Positions 6,865 to 22,420 of a stretch of DNA of 34,893 bases are shown here, piece after piece; the first letter of the stretch is position 1, and every line of letters begins with the position of its first letter. Below the pieces are notes generated by a model, which worked only from the letters and a program-made list of their open reading frames with translations, did no database searches and was not told the origin of the DNA. The stretch spans positions 1-34,893 of the forward strand of contig JAHISL010000105.1 of NCBI GenBank assembly GCA_018818185.1. Direction: 5' to 3'. The position numbers were made by a program, and so were the translations under genes. Origin of the DNA: Patescibacteria group bacterium. GTDB lineage: Bacteria > Patescibacteriota > Microgenomatia > UBA12405.

Positions 6865-6893
6865 GGCCTATTTTAGCGAATAAGTGACTATTT

Positions 6894-6904
6894 TGATATA
6901 TAAT
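6894..6904 (+). promoter_or_regulatory. Extended -10 promoter (TGATATATAAT) 6 nt upstream of the ATG at 6911
   Basis: The plus strand reads TTTTGATATATAAT-CGCAAA-ATG with no SD. This is the same geometry as the MTAE-family cassettes. Confidence 0.45.
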
Positions 6905-6910
6905 CGCAAA

Positions 6911-7147
6911 ATGGGCGAGAAATTATGTCTAAAATGCATTGAAGAAGGGCGCAGTGTGTGCCTAATTGAAGAAAAAATGCGGATATTGCAATCAAAAGTT
7001 CCAGAAGTTGCCGACAATGAAAAAAATTTGGAAATAATTCAGAGACTAAATATGGAGGAAAAAGAAATTCATGAATTAGGGCGTAAAAGGGGTTGTCATC
7101 ATCACAATGACTTTACCCTAAGTTTGCCTAGATTTGAGTTAAAATAA
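6911..7147 (+). CDS. Hypothetical small Cys/His-containing protein (78 aa)
   Basis: The ORF-track entry 6884-7147 starts at a non-ATG codon. I prefer the ATG at 6911 (MGEKLCLKCIEEGRSVC...GCHHHND) because it sits 6 nt after a -10 box. The CxxC...C...CHHH pattern suggests metal binding. No family recognised. Confidence 0.4.
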   Translation: MGEKLCLKCIEEGRSVCLIEEKMRILQSKVPEVADNEKNLEIIQRLNMEEKEIHELGRKRGCHHHNDFTLSLPRFELK

Positions 7148-7227
7148 ATGCTCGTCATGTCCGAGATAAATCACGAACAAAGGCGAGCAATTAGATTTTA
7201 GCAAAAAAAACAAAGAGAGAAAACTGA

Positions 7228-7503
7228 TTAGCCCCTACGACCAAATAGAGAAACTTTTTTCTTAGTTGATTGACTATCCTTGTAGGCACGAACTTCTATT
7301 CCACCGATATTTATACTACGATTTCCAGTAACAGTTTCAGTAGATTGAGGAGTATCACCTTTATAGGTTGAGTGAATAAAGCCATCTTTTATTGGCATAA
7401 TTCCGTGCCTTATTCCATCATTGTAGATAGGATATTCACCTTGAGGTCGAGGAAAGTTTAAAAATGTTTCTGAACCTGTTTCAAAAATTACTTCTGCACC
7501 CAT
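7228..7503 (-). CDS. Hypothetical 91-aa protein; probable short member of the MTAE family found at 20678-22420
   Basis: It starts MGAEV, with first codons ATGGGTGCAGAAGTA versus ATGACGGCAGAAGTA in the array. It has DG-x9-DGF-x25-GIEVRAY, matching the array layout [DN]GF-x22-25-G-x-x-[ILV]-[KR]. A TGTTATAAT box lies upstream at 7536-7544 on the reverse strand. Confidence 0.45.
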   Translation of the reverse strand: MGAEVIFETGSETFLNFPRPQGEYPIYNDGIRHGIMPIKDGFIHSTYKGDTPQSTETVTGNRSINIGGIEVRAYKDSQSTKKKVSLFGRRG

Positions 7504-11949: not shown

Positions 11950-12228
11950 TTATTTGATCGATAAAATTAGATTTGAACCGAGACCGACTGAAATGCGTTC
12001 AATTAGCTCCAGGGATGGATTAAGGGTGGAATTTTCAAGACGTGAAATAATTGCCTGGGTGGTGCGGGCTTTTTTCGCAAGATCTTGCTGAGACATCTTT
12101 TTCTCTAATCTCTTTTTAATTATCTGACGTGATAATTGATATTTAGGGTTTGATTCTTCCCAGAGTTTCTTAAATTCAGGATCTTTTAAACTATTTTTAA
12201 AATATTGATCGAACGACAAGAGTTTCAT
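11950..12228 (-). CDS. XRE-family HTH protein, probable antitoxin (HigA-like)
   Basis: 92 aa. The HTH is MSQQDLAKKARTTQAIISRLENSTLNPSLELIERI. It lies directly downstream of a Gp49/HigB-like toxin gene. Confidence 0.75.
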   Translation of the reverse strand: MKLLSFDQYFKNSLKDPEFKKLWEESNPKYQLSRQIIKKRLEKKMSQQDLAKKARTTQAIISRLENSTLNPSLELIERISVGLGSNLILSIK

Positions 12229-12258
12229 GGGGTAATTATATCGTATAGGATATAAATG

Positions 12259-12588
12259 TCAAGATAATTTATAAAAACGATTTAGAGCAATGTTGATTTC
12301 TTTGAGGGGGGTTTTGTTAGATTTTTTCTTGAAGGCATGCAATAAAATTATTTCGTCTTTTATTTTATTGGCGTAGATAATTCGAGTACTGTTTTTACCC
12401 AATATTCTTATTTCCCAAAGTGGGTAACCGGACAGTTTTTTAATGTGAGGAGAGGCTGAAATTAGACCAAACTCGATAATATTTTTTACAATTATAGAAA
12501 CCTTAATTTTGGTTTCTTTGTTTTTATCTAAAAAATCACCAACTGGATTTTTACCTCGATGGTCTAAAAAAAACTTGACTGATGCCAT
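12259..12588 (-). CDS. Type II toxin, RelE/ParE superfamily (phage Gp49-like / HigB-like)
   Basis: 109 aa. The segment LWEIRILGKNSTRIIYANKIKDEIILLHAFKKKSNKTPLKEINIAL matches the Gp49-like signature (yRi.y....i.lLh.F.KK..ktP..ei). The toxin-first order is typical of higBA. Confidence 0.7.
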   Translation of the reverse strand: MASVKFFLDHRGKNPVGDFLDKNKETKIKVSIIVKNIIEFGLISASPHIKKLSGYPLWEIRILGKNSTRIIYANKIKDEIILLHAFKKKSNKTPLKEINIALNRFYKLS

Positions 12589-12589
12589 G

Positions 12590-12612
12590 TGAATATTATT
12601 ACATAATATTCA
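12590..12612. promoter_or_regulatory. Perfect 10-bp inverted repeat TGAATATTAT-TAC-ATAATATTCA, candidate operator of the toxin-antitoxin operon
   Basis: Read directly from the sequence. It begins 1 nt upstream of the toxin ATG (12588). A TTGACA hexamer lies at 12614-12619 on the reverse strand, just upstream. Confidence 0.55.
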
Positions 12613-12638
12613 GTGTCAAACCCAGAGGGTACAGGGAA

Positions 12639-12872
12639 TTATTTATTATCTTCTATCAAAACAATATTTAAACATTTGATTTCTGTTTGACCACCCTCGG
12701 GTCTCCTGACAAGGAAAACGGAGCCATCCATTTTTATTGACTGGGCAGCAGTATCTAAGATTTGTTTGGCCATAGCTTGGACTTCTTCTTCAGTTGCACG
12801 AGGATATCTAGTTCTAATCGAAGAATTAAGTAAGCTAAAAGGGTCCTTGGAAGAATTATCTTGTTCAACCAT
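12639..12872 (-). CDS. Hypothetical 77-aa protein
   Basis: The ORF is preceded by its own extended -10 box 5 nt from the ATG. No family recognised. Confidence 0.4.
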   Translation of the reverse strand: MVEQDNSSKDPFSLLNSSIRTRYPRATEEEVQAMAKQILDTAAQSIKMDGSVFLVRRPEGGQTEIKCLNIVLIEDNK

Positions 12873-12877
12873 AGTTA

Positions 12878-12886
12878 ATTATATCA
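12878..12886 (-). promoter_or_regulatory. Extended -10 promoter TGATATAAT, 5 nt upstream of the ATG at 12872
   Basis: The reverse strand reads AATTTGATATAAT-TAACT-ATG. No SD is present. Confidence 0.45.
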
Positions 12887-12951
12887 AATTGTAACAATAA
12901 TGACATATTCCCGATAATAGAAAAATCTTTTGTAAAAAAAAGTAATCGATA

Positions 12952-13575
12952 TTAGTATTTGGCTAATTTTTTTACGATCTGATCAAGATCTGATTTGAAG
13001 GTCTGGGAATTAATCTCGTAGTAGGGGTAGTTATAAGATTTTGCCTCATTTCTAAACAATTCGCTGAATTTTGAAGAATAGGATATAACTTTTTTGAAAA
13101 TATCTCGGTTTGAATTTTCTAGCCAATCTCCTTCGGAGCGATGATTCCAGGAATATTCAAAAAATGACTCAAAATTTGTATTACCAACACAGATAAATTT
13201 TATTTGATACTTATCAATAAAACTTGTATCAAAAAAACTTGGTAGTAGGGCAACCCCTTCAAGAATAAAATCGCGATTATTATAGGAAATTGATTCAACA
13301 AAGCCCTTTACAATTTTGACAACCTCTTTTGACTCTGACTTTTGATTGTTTATTATTTCCTGAATTGATGGGGAAAACGTTTTTTCTATATAGTCCTCAT
13401 CTTTCCAGCTTATCCAATGGGCGAAAAGTTGATCACTTTTAGGAATACTTTCTAAATTAACGACACTTTCCCTAAGATTATCGGTCGACAACCAGGAAAA
13501 ACCCGTTGCTTTAGATATTTTTTTGGCAAGTTGAGATTTTCCAGTACGAGGAGCACCCCCAAGGAAATAAATCAT
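12952..13575 (-). CDS. P-loop NTPase / kinase-like protein
   Basis: 207 aa. The Walker A motif sits at the extreme N-terminus (MIYFLGGAPRTGKSQLAKKIS), as in small nucleotide/sugar kinase-like AAA_33-type proteins. A TACAAT box at 13581-13586 lies 5 nt upstream of the ATG. Confidence 0.55.
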   Translation of the reverse strand: MIYFLGGAPRTGKSQLAKKISKATGFSWLSTDNLRESVVNLESIPKSDQLFAHWISWKDEDYIEKTFSPSIQEIINNQKSESKEVVKIVKGFVESISYNNRDFILEGVALLPSFFDTSFIDKYQIKFICVGNTNFESFFEYSWNHRSEGDWLENSNRDIFKKVISYSSKFSELFRNEAKSYNYPYYEINSQTFKSDLDQIVKKLAKY

Positions 13576-13594: not shown

Positions 13595-15811
13595 TTACCT
13601 TCGGTTTCGATTTCGATCATCAGATGATGAGCGACGAGGTGGACTGCTGAAATTGCGGAAGGGAGGACGACCGGAAGCGGCAGGACCATCACGTTGAGGC
13701 ATAGAATCGGCGTTGCCTGGATGGGCAGCTTTGAATTCTGGAGCGCTTAATTTGATTTGATGATTGTCGTTAAAACCGGAGATGGTAACTTTTAGTTTGT
13801 CACCAATTTTGATAATTGAAGATGGATCAGAAATGAATCCCCCACTCAATTCAGAAACATGAAGCAAGGCTTCACGACCGGGTAAAAATTCAACAAAGGC
13901 ACCATAGGCTTCGACGCGGGTAACAACTCCATCATAAACTTCACCAATTTGGACATCTTTGATCATGGATTCGATTTGGAAAGCACATTCATCAATTTTT
14001 GCTTGATCTGTGGAAGAAATTGAAGCTCGGCCATCATCGTCAATGTCAATTTGGACGGAAAATTTTTCCATCAGAGCTTTGATGGTCTTACCACCAGAAC
14101 CAATGACCTCACCGATTTTATCTTCGGGGAGAGTAACTAGTTTAATTTTGGGAGCATAGACGGATAATTCTTTGCGGGGTTCGGCCAAGACAGAATCGAT
14201 TTTGTCCAAAATGGTGAGACGTGCCTTGGTAGAAGCTACAAAGGTGTCAGTAATCATTTGGAGAGAAAGACCCATTCTTTTAATATCAAGTTGAATCGCG
14301 GTAATACCAGTCCGAGTACCAGTGATTTTGAAATCCATATCACCACAGTGATCTTCGATACCAGCAATGTCGGTTAATAAAACATATTTACCTGCAGCAT
14401 CGGACATCATACCAATAGAAATGCCAGCAACCTTGTCCTTGATAGGAACACCAGCATCCATTAGAGAAAGGGTGGAACCACAGGTTGAAGCCATAGAAGA
14501 AGAACCATTTTGAGACATAACTTCGGAAGTTAAGACGATAGTATAAGGAAACTCCTCAACTGAAGGAATAACCGGAACTAGGGCTTTTTCTGCTAGGGCA
14601 CCATGACCAACTTCGCGACGACCGGGACGGCCGAAACGACCAGTTTGACCAGTGGAGAAAGGAGCAGCAGAGTAATAATGAAGATAATGTTTGGTGGTTT
14701 CGCCGCTACTGTCTTGGAGATATTGCTGTTCGGCAATAGAGCCGAGAGTAGTAATGGTTAGAGCCTGGGTTAGACCTCTTTGGAAAAGGGCAGAACCATG
14801 GGTGGTAGGTAAGACGCCAGTTTCAATTTCGAGAGGACGAACCTGATCAAAGGGACGCTTGTCGTAGCGGGTGCCAGCAAGAGTGGACTCACGTAAATAT
14901 TGACAGACCAGGGTGTCGACAGCTTCCATAACTTGGCTAGCTTCAACTTCTTCGGATTTGACTTTGGACTCGAAAGCAGCTTTGACTTTTTCTTTAATTT
15001 TTTCTTCGCCAGCCATATGAGTACCGTCCTTACCTTCGGAAAGGAATTGGGCAAGATCGTCTTTGATAAGTGTCTCAATCTCAGAAATTAGTTCCTTTGA
15101 AGGAGTAACAGGTTCAAATTCGATTTTCTTTTTACCGTATTTTTTGGCAAAATCTACTAACTGGGTATTGATAAGATCACCAGTTTCAAAACCAACTTTT
15201 AGGGCTTTAAGAACAGAATCGTTGTCCAAAATGTTGGCATCGGCCTCGATCATGTTGATACCTTCAGCATCTTTGCAGATTAGGAGGTCAAGAGATGATT
15301 TTTGGAGTTGAGAATGAGTGGGAAGAACAGTGACAGAGTCGTTTTCGAAACCGAGACGGACGGCAGAGACAGGACCATTAAAAGGAATATCGGAAAGCAT
15401 CAAGGCGGCAGACACAGCGGTAAAGGCAGGAATAACAACATCGTTTTCTTTGTCGTTACTTAAAACGGAGATAATAACTTGAACCTCGTTTTTAAATCCG
15501 ACGGGAAATAAAGGACGAATAGAGCGATCGATAATACGGCCATTGAGAATGGCAGTATCGGAAGGACCACCTTCGCGCTTGATCCATTTACTACCTTTAA
15601 CAAAGCCACCAGCATAAAGCTTATCGGAAAATTCAACAGAAAGAGGAAAATAGTCCTTGTTTTTGTCGACTGCACCCAAAACAACAGTGGCCAAAACAAC
15701 AGTTTTGCCCATAGTTGCCATGACGGCACCATTGGCTTGAGGAGCTAGAAGGCCAGTAGTTAAAGTAATTGTTTTGTCAGCGACAGTGATATCACAAGTG
15801 TTTTTTTCCAT
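13595..15811 (-). CDS. pnp: Polynucleotide phosphorylase
   Basis: 738 aa with two RNase PH-like halves, a KH region (GSGGKTIKAL) and an S1 region (GEVYDGVVTRVEAYGAFVEF). It ends in an Arg/Ser-rich tail and lies directly downstream of rpsO. Confidence 0.92.
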   Translation of the reverse strand: MEKNTCDITVADKTITLTTGLLAPQANGAVMATMGKTVVLATVVLGAVDKNKDYFPLSVEFSDKLYAGGFVKGSKWIKREGGPSDTAILNGRIIDRSIRPLFPVGFKNEVQVIISVLSNDKENDVVIPAFTAVSAALMLSDIPFNGPVSAVRLGFENDSVTVLPTHSQLQKSSLDLLICKDAEGINMIEADANILDNDSVLKALKVGFETGDLINTQLVDFAKKYGKKKIEFEPVTPSKELISEIETLIKDDLAQFLSEGKDGTHMAGEEKIKEKVKAAFESKVKSEEVEASQVMEAVDTLVCQYLRESTLAGTRYDKRPFDQVRPLEIETGVLPTTHGSALFQRGLTQALTITTLGSIAEQQYLQDSSGETTKHYLHYYSAAPFSTGQTGRFGRPGRREVGHGALAEKALVPVIPSVEEFPYTIVLTSEVMSQNGSSSMASTCGSTLSLMDAGVPIKDKVAGISIGMMSDAAGKYVLLTDIAGIEDHCGDMDFKITGTRTGITAIQLDIKRMGLSLQMITDTFVASTKARLTILDKIDSVLAEPRKELSVYAPKIKLVTLPEDKIGEVIGSGGKTIKALMEKFSVQIDIDDDGRASISSTDQAKIDECAFQIESMIKDVQIGEVYDGVVTRVEAYGAFVEFLPGREALLHVSELSGGFISDPSSIIKIGDKLKVTISGFNDNHQIKLSAPEFKAAHPGNADSMPQRDGPAASGRPPFRNFSSPPRRSSSDDRNRNRR

Positions 15812-15862: not shown

Positions 15863-16132
15863 TTATTTCTTCAGACTCAAAGATTTGATGATTTTTGTAT
15901 ATCGATCTTCATTGTGGATAGAGAGATAGCGAAGCAAACGTCGCCTTTTGGCTAGTTTACTCAAAAGTCCCCTTTTAGCGGGAGAATCGTGCTTATTTTC
16001 GTTTAAATGACCCTGGAGTTTTTCAATTTCTTTGCTTAGAATCGCAACTTGAATTTCAGGAGAACCGGTATCACCCTTTGCTTGGGCAAACTTGGTAATG
16101 ATTTCGCTTTTTTCTTCGGTGGTTAATGCCAT
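15863..16132 (-). CDS. rpsO: 30S ribosomal protein S15
   Basis: 89 aa. It has GDTGSPEIQVAILSKEI...HLNENKHDSPAKRGLLSKLAKRRRLLRYL, the classic S15 signature. Confidence 0.92.
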   Translation of the reverse strand: MALTTEEKSEIITKFAQAKGDTGSPEIQVAILSKEIEKLQGHLNENKHDSPAKRGLLSKLAKRRRLLRYLSIHNEDRYTKIIKSLSLKK

Positions 16133-16218
16133 GTAATTTATTGGCTATTGATCGGTAAATAATAATATTTTGGAATGGCTCCCAAAAAACCGATTGATAG
16201 TCAGAAGGGATTATAACA
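16133..16218 (-). promoter_or_regulatory. rpsO extended -10 promoter (TGTTATAAT, 16210-16218) plus a ~70-nt structured leader
   Basis: The reverse-strand leader is UGACUAUCAAUCGGUUUUUUGGGAGCCAUUCCAAAAUAUUAUUAUUUACCGAUCAAUAGCCAAUAAAUUAC-AUG. An outer helix CUAUCAAUCGG/CCGAUCAAUAG forms 9 of 11 pairs. It encloses the hairpin UUUUGG-GAGCCAUU-CCAAAA. Confidence 0.45.
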
Positions 16219-16222
16219 CAGA

Positions 16223-16486
16223 TTACTTATCAAGAGGGCAAGCTTGGCAACTCACAGTATCGTTGATGGGGTAGATAGAGGGGGCATCAAGATGGTCGGT
16301 GGAGGGAGGATATGAGGCGATGACTATCCTGGCGCTTATGATAGCAGGACAAGCATCGTCGAAATAATCATCTCTTTTGTCACATTGAGCAAAAGGTCTA
16401 ATAAAGGAAACACGAAGCTTAAGATGTGGAAATCTTTTTTGATCTTCCTCGCTTAGAGGATATTGGGATTGTTGTTCAATGTCCAT
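16223..16486 (-). CDS. Cys-rich small protein, paralog 3 (most diverged, 87 aa)
   Basis: It has KRFPHLKLRV...AQC...DAC...SCQAC. It shares the [YF]PHLxL motif and the terminal SCQxC with the two upstream paralogs. Confidence 0.5.
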   Translation of the reverse strand: MDIEQQSQYPLSEEDQKRFPHLKLRVSFIRPFAQCDKRDDYFDDACPAIISARIVIASYPPSTDHLDAPSIYPINDTVSCQACPLDK

Positions 16487-16510
16487 ATTATTTGGTTAGT
16501 AAATTTTTTA

Positions 16511-16807
16511 TTAAATTTGACTGTCTAAAAAATTATCTATCGCAACATCCATAGCAATACATTCTTGACAAGATCGAAGACTCATACCAGTAATACTGGT
16601 AATTGTCGGCACATTGGTTTCAAGACTTTGTCGCATGGTGACGATAAGACATCTTTGATAAATACAATTGTTCTGCCTGGAACGAATAGCACAAGCTGTT
16701 TTGATACCACCATCTTCCGCATATGAGAGATCAAGGTGGGGATAACGTTTATTAATTGAACTAGTTTTTCTAAAAGTTCGGTCTTTTCTACTTTCTTTAT
16801 TTTGCAT
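16511..16807 (-). CDS. Cys-rich small protein, paralog 2 (98 aa)
   Basis: It reads KRYPHLDLSYAEDGGIKTACAIRSRQNNCIYQRC...MRQSLETNVPTITSITGMSLRSCQEC, which aligns with paralog 1 along its whole length. Confidence 0.55.
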   Translation of the reverse strand: MQNKESRKDRTFRKTSSINKRYPHLDLSYAEDGGIKTACAIRSRQNNCIYQRCLIVTMRQSLETNVPTITSITGMSLRSCQECIAMDVAIDNFLDSQI

Positions 16808-16849
16808 TTGATGACAATTAAAAGTTATGCTTGGTATTGGCTTTATCCT

Positions 16850-17164
16850 TTAATAAATAGTTTTTGAAAAACTATCGAATACGGCTTTTGCCTGCTCAGT
16901 TTTTTGCTCCATATTCAAATAAACCTGGCATTCTTGACAAGATCTGACACCCATTCCCTCAATGCCAGTAACAGTGGGGGCGGTGGCTTCAAGACCCTGT
17001 CTCATATAAAAAACAGGACTACCTGAACTAACACAGTGCGCTGAACCATAACAATTATCTATATCGGCGGCGGCACAAAGTGTTCCAATTCCAGCACCGT
17101 CGACATGAACCAGGCGAAGGTGGGGATACGTTTTCTCTAATGATTCAGTTTTTTGGAGATACAT
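16850..17164 (-). CDS. Cys-rich small protein, paralog 1 (104 aa)
   Basis: It reads KTYPHLRLVHVDGAGIGTLCAAADIDNCYGSAHC...MRQGLEATAPTVTGIEGMGVRSCQEC. Five cysteines are in the pattern C-x7-C-x5-C...C-x2-C. I recognise no family. Confidence 0.55.
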   Translation of the reverse strand: MYLQKTESLEKTYPHLRLVHVDGAGIGTLCAAADIDNCYGSAHCVSSGSPVFYMRQGLEATAPTVTGIEGMGVRSCQECQVYLNMEQKTEQAKAVFDSFSKTIY

Positions 17165-17186: not shown

Positions 17187-18059
17187 TTAGGCCATGGGGG
17201 TGGGATTAGGTTTATTGGTCCCAGGAGCAAGGCCAGCACTTTTTTCAACGTTTTCGATCGGGGTAGGTTCAGGATTTTGAGGTGTGGAATCGTCGGGCTG
17301 AGTAGCACGAAGACAGATAGCACCAGCTTCAAAAGTTTCTGGAGAAACGTTGACGGAAAAAGATTGGGTAGCGACACGAAGGCCGATAAGCAAATCTTTC
17401 CCAGAATCTAGATCAAGTGTTAAGCCAAGCATAGGTAGCAAGAAAGTGAAAATTTCGGAAAAGGGAGCATCGGGATCCATAAGGGTGGCCTTGGCCCAGC
17501 TTTTGGAAACCTGTTGAGGGGTAATTAGAATCCAGTTTCCTTTTTCTACCATAGAAATGGCGGCGCCTAAGGGAGACTCATCACCAAGCATGAAACAGAC
17601 ATCAGCGGAAGAACCGTTGTTGTTGATCATAATTTGCTTAGTTTCAACCTTGGCAGCACCGGATTTGGTCTTAACAACCAAATTTAGATGACCACCGTCG
17701 TCGTTGTAGGAAACAGCTTCAATTTGGTCAATTGGATAATCTAGGGTAACAACCAAGTCGGAACTGGAATAGGTATCGGTCAATAGTTCTAAACCGCTAA
17801 GTTTTGAATAATTTTGATCGGTCTTTTGAGGACAAAAGACACGAGCCTCTTTTCCTTGTTTCTTTAAAGAGATGGCCAAGGCAAGAGCTGCACCGACGCT
17901 ATCGACAGAAAGAGTGGGAACCACAATAAGCGCGCTTTTGGCTGTATCAACGAGATTTTTTATTTCAGTGACATTATAATTTTTCATATTTGTCCTGCTT
18001 ACAAATAAATTATTATTTTTAGAATTTGATTCAAAAACAGAGGTATTTAACCTGTTCAT
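17187..18059 (-). CDS. Hypothetical protein, possibly a catalytically degenerate DHH (NrnA-like) domain with a Pro-rich tail
   Basis: 290 aa, with an alternative start at 17987 (MKNYNV...). The segment ALIVVPTLSVDSVGAALALAISLKKQGKEARVF resembles DHH motif I (H..pDGDalGS.laL...l...Gk.v.v), but the His and DGD are replaced. Some bacteria place nrnA after infB-rbfA, so the position fits. Confidence 0.35.
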   Translation of the reverse strand: MNRLNTSVFESNSKNNNLFVSRTNMKNYNVTEIKNLVDTAKSALIVVPTLSVDSVGAALALAISLKKQGKEARVFCPQKTDQNYSKLSGLELLTDTYSSSDLVVTLDYPIDQIEAVSYNDDGGHLNLVVKTKSGAAKVETKQIMINNNGSSADVCFMLGDESPLGAAISMVEKGNWILITPQQVSKSWAKATLMDPDAPFSEIFTFLLPMLGLTLDLDSGKDLLIGLRVATQSFSVNVSPETFEAGAICLRATQPDDSTPQNPEPTPIENVEKSAGLAPGTNKPNPTPMA

Positions 18060-18061
18060 TT

Positions 18062-19513
18062 TTAATTCTTATAGGCTATTATAACATCCTTTAGCTTAAA
18101 GTCAACATAGGGACGAAAAGTCATGCCACACTCGTGACCGACTTTGATTTTTTCAACAATATCTTTGCCTTGACGAATACCTTCAATAGTGGTGTTTTTG
18201 ATGATTTTGCCATCGCGCATGAGATGGACCGTATTTCCTTTTACCATTTCACCTTTGCTAATTTTTACACCGGCAATACGAACTTTGTCGATTTTAAACT
18301 CGGCAATAATGGTTCCTTCACCTAAGATAGTCTCTTCGATGGTTGGGTCAAGCATCTTTAAGACCTGGGATTGAATGTCTTCGATTATTTCGTATATAAT
18401 TTTTGATTGAAAGATAGACACTTTTTCATTGTCGGCGAGATTTTTGATAGTTTTACTGACGGGAACATTGAAAGCAAAAAGTTGAGAATGACTGGTTTTG
18501 GCGGCGATGACATCGTTGTCATTAACTGGACCAACACCGGCGAAAACAATGTTGACGTCATCACTGAGACTACCTTTTAAAGCTTCGAGGGTGCCTTCTA
18601 CATCAGTTTTGACAACAATATTTAGATGAGGAACTTCTTCAGCGTCGGGATCTTGAGTTGTGGAAACGTCGGGTGAGGAAACTTTGACAGTTTCAGGTTC
18701 AATTAGGTGGTCGGTAACAAGAGAGCCAACTGAGGGCACTTTTTCGAAACCTAGAATCTCTACAGGAGCACTGGGTAGGGCCTCTGAAATATTTTTACCA
18801 TCTAAGTCTAAAAGAGCTTTGACCTTTCCGGCGACATTTTCGGCATAAACTGTATCTCCGAGACGGAGGGTGCCTTTTTTGACAATTACGGCTGCCAGAG
18901 GGCCACGAAGTTTGTCGAGTTTTGATTCGATAACGACAGCTTCGAAGGGGGCATCAGGCTCATCTTTGAGCTCCATAATTTCGGCGTTCAAAAAAATTAG
19001 ATCTAAAAGCGCATCAATCCCCTCACCGGTTTTGGCAGAAACAGGGACAACTGAAATCTGACCACCATATTCTTCGGGGGTAAGATCCATTTCAACTAGC
19101 TGACCCTTGACCATTTCGGGTTGGCGAGTATCAAGATCAAATTTGGTCATGGCAACAATGACGGGAAGATTGGCTTTTTTTATCTGGGCAATGCATTCCT
19201 TTGTTTGAGCCATAACGCCGTCAACGGCAGAAATAACCAAAACAACTAAATCGGTGATATCAGCTCCACGAGCGCGCATGGCACAAAAGGCGGCATGGCC
19301 AGGAGTATCAATAAAGGTTACCGGTTTGATTTTACCGTTCTTTAGTTTGACTTCATATTGATATGAAGAAATATGCTGAGTAATTCCACCAGATTCCTTA
19401 CGAGCAACGCTGGCACTTCTAATCTTATCTAAAAGAGTCGTTTTTCCATGGTCAATGTGACCCATAACGGCAACGATAGGCGGACGATATTTGGTGGCCG
19501 AATTTGTAGTCAT
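18062..19513 (-). CDS. infB: Translation initiation factor IF-2 (short form starting at the G domain)
   Basis: 483 aa. [22 protein letters not shown] lies near residue 8, followed by DTPGH and the NKxD-equivalent region. It sits downstream of nusA. Confidence 0.92.
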
Positions 19514-19532: not shown

Positions 19533-20522
19533 TTAACTTTTGTTGGCAGATACCTTGATTTCTAGTCCACAAAGCATTCCTGCCAAACGGACATTCTCAC
19601 CACCGGCACCAATGGCCAGAGCAAGTTGATCTTCGGGAATTTCAACCTGAGCAGTGGTGTCGTCGACAGAAATTACTTTGACATCGCTAGCAGGAGAAAG
19701 AGCGTTGACAATGAACTGAGAAAGGTTTTTGGCATAGGCGACAACGTCGACTTTTTCGTCTGGAGGTAGCTCGGTCAATACTGACTGAATTCGAGAACCT
19801 TTTTGACCAATACAGGAACCGACAGGATCAATTCCATTTTGAGAGGAAGAGACGGCAACCTTGGTGCGTTGACCGGCTTCACGGGCAATTTTTTCGATAA
19901 CCACGGTGTGATTGTTGACTTCGGGAACTTCGCGAGCAAAAAGTTGTTTGACAAATTCGGGATCACGTCGAGAAAGAATAATGTCTTTTCGACCAGTAAC
20001 AGCATCTTCTTGGATTTCTTTTATTAGAAATAGTTTTTTAGAACTAATATCAAGTATTTCATTCTTGATTTGTTCGTCTTTGGGAAGAACACCTTCTGTT
20101 TTGCCGATACCGATGGTTTTTTTATAAGGATCAACTCGGAGAACAACACCAAGAGTAAGGGTGCCAATCTTTTGATGATATTCACCAACAACGGTGTCTC
20201 GTTCAACTTCACGAATTTTTTGGTCGATGACCTGTTTGGCGGTCATGGCGGCAATGCGACCGAAACCGGGAGGGGTAACGTCTTTTCTCTCTTCACCCTC
20301 AACTTCAAAAATGGCAAAGGAACCAGATTCGGGAGAAAGATCAACTTCGAAGACAGATTCTTCGGAGATAATAACACCATGCTCTTTTTGATCACGCTTA
20401 TAAGCGGAAATTAAACCTTGTTCAATGGCGTCGATAATCTCTTGAGGATCGATGTTGCGTTCACCGGCGATTTGAGCGACGGCGGCGGCGAATTCAGTTT
20501 TTGGTAGTCTTCTAATATCCAT
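19533..20522 (-). CDS. nusA: Transcription termination/antitermination factor NusA (no C-terminal acidic repeats)
   Basis: 329 aa with an N-terminal domain, S1 and two KH regions (GSCIGQKGSRIQ, AIGAGGENVRLAG). An AAGGAG SD lies at 20527-20532. Confidence 0.92.
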   Translation of the reverse strand: MDIRRLPKTEFAAAVAQIAGERNIDPQEIIDAIEQGLISAYKRDQKEHGVIISEESVFEVDLSPESGSFAIFEVEGEERKDVTPPGFGRIAAMTAKQVIDQKIREVERDTVVGEYHQKIGTLTLGVVLRVDPYKKTIGIGKTEGVLPKDEQIKNEILDISSKKLFLIKEIQEDAVTGRKDIILSRRDPEFVKQLFAREVPEVNNHTVVIEKIAREAGQRTKVAVSSSQNGIDPVGSCIGQKGSRIQSVLTELPPDEKVDVVAYAKNLSQFIVNALSPASDVKVISVDDTTAQVEIPEDQLALAIGAGGENVRLAGMLCGLEIKVSANKS

Positions 20523-20642: not shown

Positions 20643-20692
20643 TGGAAGAGATTGAGATATTATGATATATTCCGTACATGACGGCAGAAGTA
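20643..20692 (+). repeat. MTAE-family 5' cassette, copy 1 (extended -10 TGATATATT at 20663-20671, 6-nt spacer, ATG at 20678)
   Basis: It reads TGGAAGAGATTGAGATATTATGATATATTCCGTAC-ATGACGGCAGAAGTA. It is about 74 percent identical to copy 2 over the 35 nt before the ATG, by hand count. Confidence 0.6.
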
Positions 20693-21088
20693 ACAGGTGG
20701 AAAGATTTGTTTGGTAGGAGGGGAAGAAACAATTAAGTGGAAAATTGATGATTCGGGAAAGAGAGCTCAATTAAAAAAAGTTGAAGGTAGGTTAGAGTTA
20801 AGTATTTTTCAGGGAGATATTGAAGAAACCACCTTTAGAAAATGTGTAGTTATTGTTCGAGACGGTGAAGTCTATAGAACTGACAGAAATAGTAATGTCG
20901 AAAGGACAGTTGTACCCCTCGGAAACTATGGAATTTATTTTCGTAAAAATAAAGTAGTAAAAATTGCGGGAACATTTAAAGGATTTGATACTTTTCCTAA
21001 GATTTCTGGACAAACTACCTACAGACACGGAGAAATGATTCAGACAAAGAAAGGCATTAAGATCAAAGCAATAGAAAATAAACGTTAG
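20678..21088 (+). CDS. MTAE-family protein 1 (136 aa, unknown function)
   Basis: It reads MTAEVTGGK...RDGEVY...FKGFDT...GIKIKAIENKR. The alternating hydrophobic pattern suggests an all-beta fold. It has no TM helix or signal peptide. Confidence 0.6.
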   Translation: MTAEVTGGKICLVGGEETIKWKIDDSGKRAQLKKVEGRLELSIFQGDIEETTFRKCVVIVRDGEVYRTDRNSNVERTVVPLGNYGIYFRKNKVVKIAGTFKGFDTFPKISGQTTYRHGEMIQTKKGIKIKAIENKR

Positions 21089-21124
21089 ATTTAGAAAATT
21101 AAGCAAGCTGCAAGAGATAAGTTG

Positions 21125-21174
21125 TAGAAGAGACTGAATTATTGTGATATATTTCGCATATGACAGCAGAAATA
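21125..21174 (+). repeat. MTAE-family 5' cassette, copy 2 (TGATATATT at 21145-21153, 6-nt spacer, ATG at 21160)
   Basis: It reads TAGAAGAGACTGAATTATTGTGATATATTTCGCAT-ATGACAGCAGAAATA. Confidence 0.6.
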
Positions 21175-21573
21175 AGAGGAACACTTGCCTATCTAATAAA
21201 AAGAGAGGGGGTAGATACCGAGCTGGAAGCTATTCCTTCAAGCTTTTTAGTGGAAGCTTATGAGGGAAAACTGATATTAAGACAAACAGAAGGTGATGTA
21301 AATGAAAAAGCCAGTATATATTCTGGTTTAAGGGCAGTGATACATGGAGGGATAGTAATTTCGACAAAAAATAGTGAAAAGGTGACCCTTCGTGACGGGG
21401 AACAAGCGGTCGAAATTTTACCTGATGGAACAGTTCGAACGTTTGTCGGGACACTAAATGGATTTGAGGTCAGAGGAGGAGAAAATAGACTTCTCAAGAA
21501 AGAATACACTGCCGGTAAAAAGATAATCACCCCCAGGGGAACTGAGATTAAAGCAATTAGGGGAGATCTGTAA
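21160..21573 (+). CDS. MTAE-family protein 2 (137 aa)
   Basis: It reads MTAEIRGTL...IHGGIVI...LNGFEV...GTEIKAIRGDL. Confidence 0.6.
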   Translation: MTAEIRGTLAYLIKREGVDTELEAIPSSFLVEAYEGKLILRQTEGDVNEKASIYSGLRAVIHGGIVISTKNSEKVTLRDGEQAVEILPDGTVRTFVGTLNGFEVRGGENRLLKKEYTAGKKIITPRGTEIKAIRGDL

Positions 21574-21980
21574 TGACGGCAGAAGTTGATAAAAAAATCG
21601 TTGTACAAGTACAAAAAAAAGAAAGAATCACTTTTGAGATGGATGATGGAGACAGTCTTGAAATTCATGCACTTAAGGGAACGAGCGGTGAATTGGAGGT
21701 GGTCAGGGAACGGATAATTCAGTGTTCTGGTCCAATAAGGGGAGTAATTTTTAAGGGGAGATTTTATGTGAGTGAGGGAGAAGACAATATAGTTGAGCCA
21801 GGAGACAGGGTGTTTCACGTGTCTGATGAAGGAAAGGGATTAGAAATAATTGAAGGAAGGGAAAATGGTTTTCGAATAACAAGATCCAACGGTGATACGA
21901 CTGAGTATCATTCAAAAAATACAGTTGTTTTGAGGGGTCCAGCGGGAGTAGTATTAAAAGCAAGACAAAACAATAAGTAG
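21573..21980 (+). CDS. MTAE-family protein 3 (135 aa), translationally coupled to protein 2
   Basis: It reads MTAEVDKKI...FKGRFYV...ENGFRI...GVVLKARQNNK. Its start overlaps the protein 2 stop (TAATG at 21571-21575). A GGGGAG SD lies 7 nt upstream, inside the 3' end of gene 2. Confidence 0.6.
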   Translation: MTAEVDKKIVVQVQKKERITFEMDDGDSLEIHALKGTSGELEVVRERIIQCSGPIRGVIFKGRFYVSEGEDNIVEPGDRVFHVSDEGKGLEIIEGRENGFRITRSNGDTTEYHSKNTVVLRGPAGVVLKARQNNK

Positions 21981-22027
21981 AAGAAGTTGTACTATTGTGA
22001 TATATTTTGCATATGACTGCGGAAATA
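21978..22027 (+). repeat. MTAE-family 5' cassette, copy 3 (TGATATATT at 21998-22006, 6-nt spacer, ATG at 22013)
   Basis: It reads TAGAAGAAGTTGTACTATTGTGATATATTTTGCAT-ATGACTGCGGAAATA. It is about 81 percent identical to copy 2 over the 37 nt before the ATG, by hand count. Confidence 0.6.
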
Positions 22028-22420
22028 AACACAGAACTTAATCATGTAGTTTTGACTCCAGGACAAGACGTGGGGGTTGGATTTCAATTTAGGAGATACG
22101 GAAATATCTGTTTTAAAAGGGGTGAGTTTCCAATACAGGTGATAGCTGATGGTAATGAACTGCCAATTGAAGCAAATGTGGTGATATATGACAGAACAAT
22201 ATATACAATTGCAAAAGAAAGGCCGTCATCTTTAACTTTAGAAAATTGTGGGACAAGAGCGTTGAGCATAACCGAGAAAGGAATTCAAGAAATATGTATA
22301 ACAGATAATGGTTTTTCAGTAAGGGAAATTTATCCCGGAGAAAGAAGGCCTGTTTTTTTTGAAGGTGGAATAACAATGGAGCTTGATTCGGGAGTTAAGT
22401 TGAGAGGAAAAAGAGGTTAG
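22013..22420 (+). CDS. MTAE-family protein 4 (135 aa)
   Basis: The ORF track starts at a TTG at 22007 (MHMTAE). The ATG at 22013 restores the family N-terminus: MTAEINTEL...IYDRTIY...DNGFSV...GVKLRGKRG. Confidence 0.6.
   Translation: MTAEINTELNHVVLTPGQDVGVGFQFRRYGNICFKRGEFPIQVIADGNELPIEANVVIYDRTIYTIAKERPSSLTLENCGTRALSITEKGIQEICITDNGFSVREIYPGERRPVFFEGGITMELDSGVKLRGKRG

Follow-up and report, generated by a model that had tools for sequence, protein, structure and literature searches.

The 34,893-nucleotide contig JAHISL010000105.1 of a Patescibacteria group bacterium (GenBank assembly GCA_018818185.1) carries three consecutive genes for small cysteine-rich proteins at positions 16223-17164. 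The contig as a whole is called the window below, and all coordinates refer to its entire 35 kb. The three genes fill the space between a DHH-like gene that follows infB and the promoter of rpsO, which we call the slot. We find that slot genes are lineage-restricted orphans of Candidatus Shapirobacteria and that they are accessory, being present at about 60% of related loci. Their copy number ranges from 0 to 3 through tandem duplication and, once, fusion. Alleles are replaced with sharp break-points at the conserved flanks, and the only durable residues are cysteines, about four of them including one CxxC. In our judgement the slot rather likely encodes accessory mini-proteins, probably zinc-stabilised, in a hotspot of birth-and-death evolution and recombination, with a role that may lie in strain-specific recognition or conflict.

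Three paralogous genes in the slot

All three genes are on the minus strand, as are nusA through pnp around them. Copy 1 (16850..17164, 104 aa, cysteines at residues 30, 38, 44, 76 and 79) is identical to the NCBI entry 'hypothetical protein KKD37_04580', copy 2 (16511..16807) is a 98-aa paralog with cysteines at 39, 48, 53, 80 and 83, and copy 3 (16223..16486) is an 87-aa paralog with four cysteines only (35, 46, 80 and 83). The initial annotation, made from the sequence alone, had described three tandem paralogous open reading frames (ORFs) of 87-104 aa, the third with a reduced cysteine set, and this description is exact (copy 1 versus copy 2, BLASTP E=2e-20). The short gaps that it reported are also there: 22 nt between the DHH-like gene and copy 1, then 42 and 24 nt between the copies, followed by 90 nt to rpsO. 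Aligned identity of copy 1 is 40% to copy 2 and 26% to copy 3, and residues P14, H15, L16, L18, C44, S75, C76, Q77 and C79 are invariant across the three copies.

The motifs said to be common to the copies stand in part. [YF]PHLxL and the terminal SCQ[EA]C are found in all three, but the MRQ..PT[VI]T.I.GM core is a feature of copies 1 and 2. In copy 1 this core (MRQ..PTVTGIEGM..RSCQEC) spans 16929..17005, and it recurs as DNA in copy 2 at 16560-16636 (direct repeat D2, 71% over 77 nt). From the proposed cysteine ladder, C30, C44, C76 and C79 are kept in the ortholog of a sister strain (see below), but the middle C38 is absent there; the acidic tail is clear in copy 2 and weak otherwise. Each copy has a single CxxC, and the spacing of the remaining cysteines is C-x13-C in copies 1 and 2 and C-x10-C in copy 3. 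The three products are soluble, with neither signal peptide nor transmembrane segment, and have a composition typical of the genome (pI 5.5 for copy 1).

The three ORFs are genuine protein-coding genes, because other slot-gene pairs have ratios of non-synonymous to synonymous substitution rates (dN/dS) of 0.28-0.57. The ORFs cover 91% of the 967-bp space from the DHH-like stop codon to the rpsO promoter, and the chance of a stop-free frame is about 0.012-0.025 per ORF. Shine-Dalgarno motifs are generally lacking in this genome, so that a check for them says nothing on translation of the slot. Among the window copies, pN/pS is 0.6-0.86 with pS saturated. For comparison with other genomes, we define slot mini-proteins as products of 60-150 aa with at least four cysteines and one CxxC, encoded on the same strand from the stop codon of the DHH-like gene to the promoter of rpsO. 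This description fits all three window genes and 18 of the 20 occupied slots of related loci (see below).

Allele divergence from a sister strain

A sister strain is represented by six assemblies (L001-L006), with the gene order nusA-infB-DHH-like-103 aa-98 aa-rpsO-pnp. Its flanks are ~94% identical to the window at the DNA level and 98-100% at the protein level (dN/dS 0.02-0.05). The sole ortholog of copy 1 (P0002) is found there, with ~80% DNA and 63% protein identity. For this pair dS is flank-like (0.12), dN is 0.21 and dN/dS is 1.75, an excess over 1 that lacks statistical robustness (whole gene, p=0.12; variable parts, p=0.02-0.06). Differences are distributed over the three codon positions as 20:15:16, versus 11:4:61 for the DHH-like gene. 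They cluster at the N-terminal end, in the C30-C44 loop and in the tail, with conservation of the MRQ..CQEC core (codons 56-82: dN 0.076, dS 0.148, dN/dS ~0.5). The most divergent segment, codons 31-43 in the C30-C44 loop (17036..17074), differs at 15 of 36 aligned nucleotides and has a 3-nt in-frame indel, and the 60-nt alignment block that includes it is the least identical one of copy 1 (39/60).

Beyond copy 1 the two strains cannot be aligned. The copy 2/3 region (window 16848-16219) is without DNA homology in the sister strain, which lacks copy 3; its 98-aa gene at this place is 22-29% identical to any window copy, and 22-23% to copy 2. At non-synonymous sites, slot genes evolve 10-70 times faster than their neighbours. 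In all six samples the sister allele has one and the same DNA sequence, and alleles are therefore stable within the population, with no ongoing programmed hypermutation.

This stability bears on one explanation for hypervariable genes that are patchily present in a conserved background, namely that they are targets of diversity-generating retroelements, which are common in bacteria of the candidate phyla radiation (CPR), or remnants of mobile elements or homing endonucleases lodged between conserved genes. One of the two alleles has an A at 37 of the 51 copy 1 differences, as such retroelements would lead one to expect. Still, the window has neither a reverse transcriptase nor a template repeat (the sole repeat is the paralog core), and the differences run over the whole gene and extend to gene replacement instead of being limited to a 3' variable region. 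HNH, GIY-YIG and transposase signatures are absent as well, and slot proteins have no phage or viral relatives. Integron cassettes with attC-type sites were rejected, since gaps of 22-42 nt are too short for such sites and inverted repeats are absent from the boundaries. We regard this whole class of explanations as hardly credible.

The slot across Shapirobacteria

We fetched 50 related loci by means of their DHH-like protein, and most of the titled records among them are labelled Candidatus Shapirobacteria; the counts of slot states below refer to 34 non-redundant loci. The distance from the DHH-like gene to rpsO varies from 97 to 1058 bp. The slot is empty (97-137 bp) in 13 of the 34 loci, masked by N in one, and occupied in 20 by one to three same-strand ORFs of 53-148 aa. 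Of the 20 occupied slots, 18 have one or more ORFs with at least four cysteines. Reading frames are intact in occupied loci, and the ORFs mostly have one CxxC and are mostly mutually unalignable. The cysteine signature is specific to the slot: among 348 small ATG-initiated ORFs in 20 related loci, 19 have at least four cysteines and a CxxC, and 15 of these 19 are slot ORFs (Fisher p ~7e-21).

Seven of the fetched contigs (L009, L011, L012, L014, L017, L022 and L023) have a Shapirobacteria-type locus under the title 'Candidatus Methanoperedens sp.' or 'uncultured Gammaproteobacteria bacterium'. These records of metagenome-assembled genomes are probably mis-binned or mislabelled.

BLAST connects slot ORFs only into sub-groups. 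Group A3 is the window family; A5 has the pattern C...CxGC...C; A6 has an N-terminal CxxC followed by C-x5-12-C; and A7 has C...C and a C-terminal CxxC. Besides Met1, cysteines are the only invariant columns in groups A3, A5, A6, A7 and A9, plus the Gly of CxGC in A5. Comparison of the groups by hhalign gave a weak match between A3 and A7 (E=0.004, probability 8%), and other pairs of groups were not significant.

Slot genes in five other genome pairs are under weak purifying selection, with the dN/dS of 0.28-0.57 already mentioned versus 0.02-0.12 for their flanks. In one comparison (L019 versus L046), dS is 1.24 for the slot gene and 0.06-0.32 for the flanks, which indicates allele replacement or an old allele in a young background.

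On a neighbour-joining tree of the DHH-like protein and S15, slot types are patchy: L027 (A5) is sister to L009 (fused A6-A6), and the window clade (A3) stands beside A6 carriers. A single slot can also hold different types, as in L015, where one A5 and two A7 genes are found together. The homology of close relatives stops 0-12 nt past the DHH-like stop codon and resumes no more than about 10 nt from the stop codon of the last slot gene. In L009, the slot protein (6876-7322, 148 aa, 8 cysteines) consists of two fused A6-type modules (CxxC...C-x11-C twice), which shows that tandem duplication and fusion take place inside the slot. Fusions of this type are a possible route to circularly permuted cysteine orders among slot groups.

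Search for relatives and predicted fold

The initial annotation had recognised no family, and we agree: Pfam, NCBIfam, PADLOC, PHROGs, PDB and Foldseek are all without a relative. Searches of Pfam, NCBIfam, PADLOC and PHROGs with the three proteins and 19 further slot proteins gave nothing above noise; the best PADLOC and PHROGs matches were noise at E>=0.018, with no match to an anti-phage defence or phage family. A sequence profile search of the PDB had zero matches, Foldseek with two structural models from AlphaFold2 (AF2) found nothing at E<1 in PDB and BFVD, and viral contigs and GenBank phages contained no relatives of slot proteins. A word-indexed search of 5.8 billion proteins returned the input family only. 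Exhaustive HMMER search of 1.84 billion representative proteins recovered the three window proteins and two sister-strain homologs; two further matches, the long repetitive surface-type proteins P0006 and P0007, were dismissed as spurious, as their E-values sum 6-7 weak repeat matches. Rfam matches inside the slot (16223-17164) were noise at E>1, and a structured non-coding RNA was rejected on this ground. Our literature search on small cysteine-rich proteins of Patescibacteria yielded nothing relevant.

Specific candidates were rejected one by one. A classical C4 zinc ribbon or rubredoxin-like knuckle pair needs two CxxC or CPxCG motifs 10-30 residues apart, and here there is one CxxC per module; zinc-finger and ribbon families of Pfam gave one chance-level match in 1 of 22 slot proteins at E<=0.1 and otherwise none. 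The cysteine pattern differs from that of WhiB-like Fe-S proteins (C-Xn-C-X2-C-X5-C), and Pfam Whib was not matched. The HMA fold is beta-alpha-beta-beta-alpha-beta. 'GIEGMxVRSCQEC' looks superficially like the GMxCxxC loop of HMA domains, but it has a 3-residue insert and is near the C-terminus, with only a helix after it, instead of preceding helix 1; PF00403 was not matched at E<=1.

Metal binding, as initially proposed, is plausible, given that cysteines are the invariant columns in every slot group, and the sequences are compatible with a generic Cys4 site. C30, C44, C76 and C79 are kept in ortholog P0002 and have equivalents in copies 2 and 3; across 5 sequences C44, C76 and C79 never vary, and across 11 sequences the same holds for C30, C76 and C79. 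The two AF2 models (pLDDT 66 and 49) concur in predicting 4-5 strands and then a C-terminal helix, with the CxxC at its start. Residues 33-45 of copy 1, which overlap the most divergent segment, have pLDDT <50.

The predicted fold is of interest for a further explanation, according to which slot genes encode cysteine-rich bacteriocins or precursors of ribosomally synthesised and post-translationally modified peptides, tandem and hypervariable and processed by enzymes encoded elsewhere, as for prochlorosins. Like prochlorosin-type loci, the slot has small, tandem or multiple, cysteine-containing ORFs that are hypervariable between strains and vary in copy number. Unlike them, it has no layout of conserved leader and variable core: the C-terminal third, including the CxxC, is the most conserved part, and a double-glycine-like motif, as read from the sequences, differs among the copies. 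No maturase is encoded in the 35 kb, which is devoid of radical-SAM, LanM, cyclodehydratase, C39-peptidase and ABC-transporter genes. Proteins of 87-104 aa are long for precursors, and they are predicted to fold into a beta-sheet plus helix. We therefore consider this explanation improbable.

A more serious alternative is that the ORFs are near-neutral young or 'proto' genes, which would arise, duplicate and decay with little or no function in a permissive spacer transcribed by read-through. Cysteines would then persist for no other reason than that stapling by a metal lets a short random-like peptide most easily escape toxicity or degradation. The failure to detect a family or fold agrees with such an origin, and so does the fact that every allele occurs just once in about 15 billion proteins. 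Empty slots are frequent, some occupants lack cysteines, and for copy 1 a dN/dS of ~1.7 is not significantly different from 1, with an even spread over codon positions and a transition to transversion ratio of 24:27. However, the five other slot-gene pairs, whose dS is saturated or high, have dN/dS values in the range of purifying selection, and the core of copy 1 is itself constrained. Intact reading frames in occupied loci, a sister allele that is stable over six samples, and cysteines and a CxxC that stay invariant amid the turnover of everything else are also unexpected for near-neutral sequences. We consider it possible, but on balance unlikely, that the slot holds proto-genes only.

Flanking genes, rpsO promoter and the link to translation

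In agreement with the initial annotation, Pfam confirms the order nusA-infB-...-rpsO-pnp in the window: nusA (19533..20522), infB for a short, 483-aa IF2 (18062..19513), rpsO for S15 (15863..16132, 100% aa identity with the sister strain) and pnp for PNPase (13595..15811). The upstream boundary of the slot is the DHH-like gene (17187..18059, 290 aa), with which the conserved part of the nusA-infB unit ends. It was correctly described as degenerate: the Pfam DHH match (E=0.002) is under the threshold, KTK takes the place of the DHH triad, most of motif I is gone, and so is the DHHA1 domain. A dN/dS of 0.05 against the sister strain indicates strong purifying selection, and a conserved TPIENVEK motif at the C-terminus is shared with Roizmanbacteria. 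The protein is probably a non-catalytic member of the NrnA/RecJ fold that has been kept after infB. In a tract at 17381-17560, DNA identity of this gene to the sister strain falls to 42-48 of 60 with a near-identical protein, which suggests a mosaic recombination patch beside the slot.

The downstream boundary is the extended -10 promoter element of rpsO, TGTGTTATAAT (16210..16220, minus strand), which begins 2 nt beyond the copy 3 stop codon. In 19 aligned loci the consensus TGTGnTATAAT keeps a constant distance to rpsO, and a few of these loci depart from it by a single base. The element is followed by a 5' leader (16133..16209), a structured RNA of ~77 nt with three nested stems, in which 9 of 15 pairs have compensatory changes (RNAalifold, 19 Shapirobacteria loci). 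The match to the Rfam S15 leader RF00114 is sub-threshold (27.6 versus 39.5 bits, E=5.5e-4), and the leader probably represents the S15 autoregulatory element in a lineage-specific form. Judged by sequence conservation, rpsO-pnp is served by a promoter and leader of its own, situated immediately past the slot, and mini-protein genes can therefore be at most the tail of the nusA-infB-DHH-like transcript. Terminator prediction between the DHH-like gene and rpsO gave no terminator-like site, and the only strong promoter-like site predicted is just upstream of the DHH-like gene. Most simply, the mini-protein genes would be the 3' tail of the nusA-infB-DHH-like transcript.

These observations do not favour the original proposal, in which a metal-binding module tied to translation or RNA decay occupies the place or role of rbfA and truB and is co-expressed with infB, rpsO and pnp. 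The proposal was reasonable in view of the location between infB and rpsO, the short gaps without a predicted terminator and the conserved cysteines. It is also right that rbfA and truB are not found between infB and rpsO, nor anywhere else in the window. However, the separate promoter and S15-type leader of rpsO argue against co-expression with rpsO-pnp, and in the 13 loci with an empty slot the DHH-like gene leads directly to rpsO (~100 bp). Linkage to infB and rpsO in related genomes holds for the position only, as neither occupancy nor sequence is conserved. Genes that are dispensable, variable in copy number and 10-70 times faster in non-synonymous change do not point to a functional tie to the translation apparatus; proteins that bind conserved ribosomal or RNA partners do not show dN/dS>=1 or unalignable allele swaps between strains with 98-100% identical flanking proteins.

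Absence of rbfA is a trait of the whole class. A survey of >30,000 genomes reported that der, era and rbfA were lost in Dojkabacteria, WWE3 and Microgenomatia (PMC12641178), and this loss across Microgenomatia is independent of the genes described here. Shapirobacteria are part of the Microgenomates group, so that rbfA is absent owing to a class-wide loss. In Roizmanbacteria, with the order nusA-infB-DHH-rmuC-recJ, rbfA and truB are absent at this site and so are the mini-proteins. The many empty slots imply that mini-proteins do not compensate for rbfA loss. They have no similarity to RbfA (PF02033; at E<=1 none of the three proteins matches in Pfam or NCBIfam) or to TruB (no Pfam or NCBIfam match; the catalytic TruB_N has ~300 aa versus 87-104 aa here). 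The mini-proteins are not functional substitutes for RbfA or TruB, and we consider the translation module as a whole very improbable.

A variable locus for accessory mini-proteins

We thus return to accessory, probably zinc-stabilised mini-proteins in a birth-and-death and recombination hotspot. Lineages acquire and lose slot genes, duplicate them and exchange them with one another, probably through homologous recombination in the highly conserved flanks, and expression would come from read-through of the strongly expressed nusA-infB operon. The cysteines would chelate one Zn(II) or, less likely, an Fe or Fe-S centre. The metal would staple a small scaffold of beta-sheet plus helix, with the CxxC at the N-terminus of the C-terminal helix. 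This would leave both terminal tails, and the loop that separates the first two ligands, free to vary as strain-specific binding surfaces. For the biological role, conflict or recognition (of phage, host or competitor) appears most plausible, and a housekeeping function less so.

Several points weigh against this interpretation. Two occupied slots (L008 and L010) hold ORFs with 0-2 cysteines. There is one CxxC only and the spacing of the other cysteines shifts by group, which is atypical of classical zinc ribbons; AF2 confidence is low for both models; and for common ancestry of the four slot groups profile comparison gives one weak match, A3 with A7. The neighbourhood holds nothing that points to a conflict system, and the dN/dS above 1 of copy 1 is equally compatible with relaxed constraint.

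In a stronger version of the argument, the slot would be a dedicated diversification locus. Its products would be zinc-stapled mini-binders with loops and tails under diversifying selection, and alleles would be shuffled among Shapirobacteria populations by recombination on the ultra-conserved infB/DHH-like and rpsO flanks, to serve as strain-specific determinants of recognition or immunity (against phage, host or competitors), or as strain-specific modulators of the NusA/IF2/S15/PNPase machinery. We think this version unlikely. If true, it would constitute a previously undescribed small-protein variability system in episymbiotic CPR bacteria.

Other variable or cysteine-bearing loci in the window

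A second tandem paralog array is located at 20678-22420 (+), divergent from nusA. Its four ORFs of ~136 aa all begin with MTAE and follow a conserved 52-nt upstream repeat (D1); their mutual identity is 15-31%, and none belongs to a Pfam, PHROG or PADLOC family. Only two copies are present in the sister strain (L002 1057-1880, minus strand). Another strain-variable islet, between pnp and a Lon-like AAA gene (11950-13575, minus strand), encodes a 207-aa AAA_33-like kinase, an ORF of 77 aa and a Gp49/HigB-type toxin together with an HTH_3 antitoxin, and the sister strain has only a 79-aa ORF at this position. Finally, a small ORF with four cysteines (78 aa, MGEKLCLKC...C...C-HHH) is found between proS and a 91-aa ORF at 6911-7147 (+). 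It is conserved in the sister strain (L002 13356-13592, minus strand) and has no PHROGs match.

Comparison with known systems

Prokaryotic zinc-finger micro-proteins, such as the Haloferax volcanii C(P)XCG proteins and Halobacterium Brz, are likewise small and soluble with four conserved cysteines including CxxC, and they are often orphan or lineage-specific, with zinc as a fold-stabilising staple (PMC11241148, PMC10716476, PMC2253796). They have two C(P)XCG knuckles and mostly <70 aa; slot proteins have a single CxxC, two variably spaced cysteines and 60-148 aa. The two kinds have no sequence or profile similarity, and zinc in slot proteins is a proposal. We know of no counterpart in studies of zinc-finger micro-proteins to a single locus that is hypervariable in sequence and variable in copy number.

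Flexible genomic islets are variable between strains, flanked by core genes and exchanged by homologous recombination. The slot resembles them in its sharp break-points at conserved flanks, in unalignable alleles of near-identical strains, in gain, loss and replacement, and in some alleles whose dS is far older than that of the flanks. Unlike flexible islets, it is tiny (at most 1 kb), lies within an exceptionally conserved gene neighbourhood and carries almost exclusively one physico-chemical kind of gene (Cys4 mini-proteins) in place of a mixed cargo.

Genes found in the same operon elsewhere are different. RbfA and TruB, which the E. coli gene order would lead one to expect here, share only the infB-rpsO position with the mini-proteins; they are conserved and not cysteine-rich. 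YlxR (DUF448) and YlxP (DUF503) are small accessory genes of the nusA-infB operon in Firmicutes, with ~90-100 aa and, in YlxR, an N-terminal CxxC. They are thus similar to slot proteins in size and operon, but they are conserved, single-copy and placed before or after infB, and slot proteins had no Pfam match to them (E<=1; E<=0.1).

Taken together, the slot is a micro-islet of orphan Cys4 mini-proteins, notable for its location and its consistent protein type, and restricted to a single candidate lineage. Few gene neighbourhoods of bacteria are as conserved as nusA-infB...rpsO-pnp, and a sub-kilobase hotspot inside this one is unexpected. The analysis corrects a tempting mis-annotation as RbfA/TruB replacement and, as a by-product, defines the promoter of rpsO in this lineage together with a covarying S15-type leader. 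The slot offers a natural system for the birth, fold retention (probably by metal) and diversification of very small proteins, and a window on strain-level variable functions in genome-reduced, host-dependent CPR bacteria.

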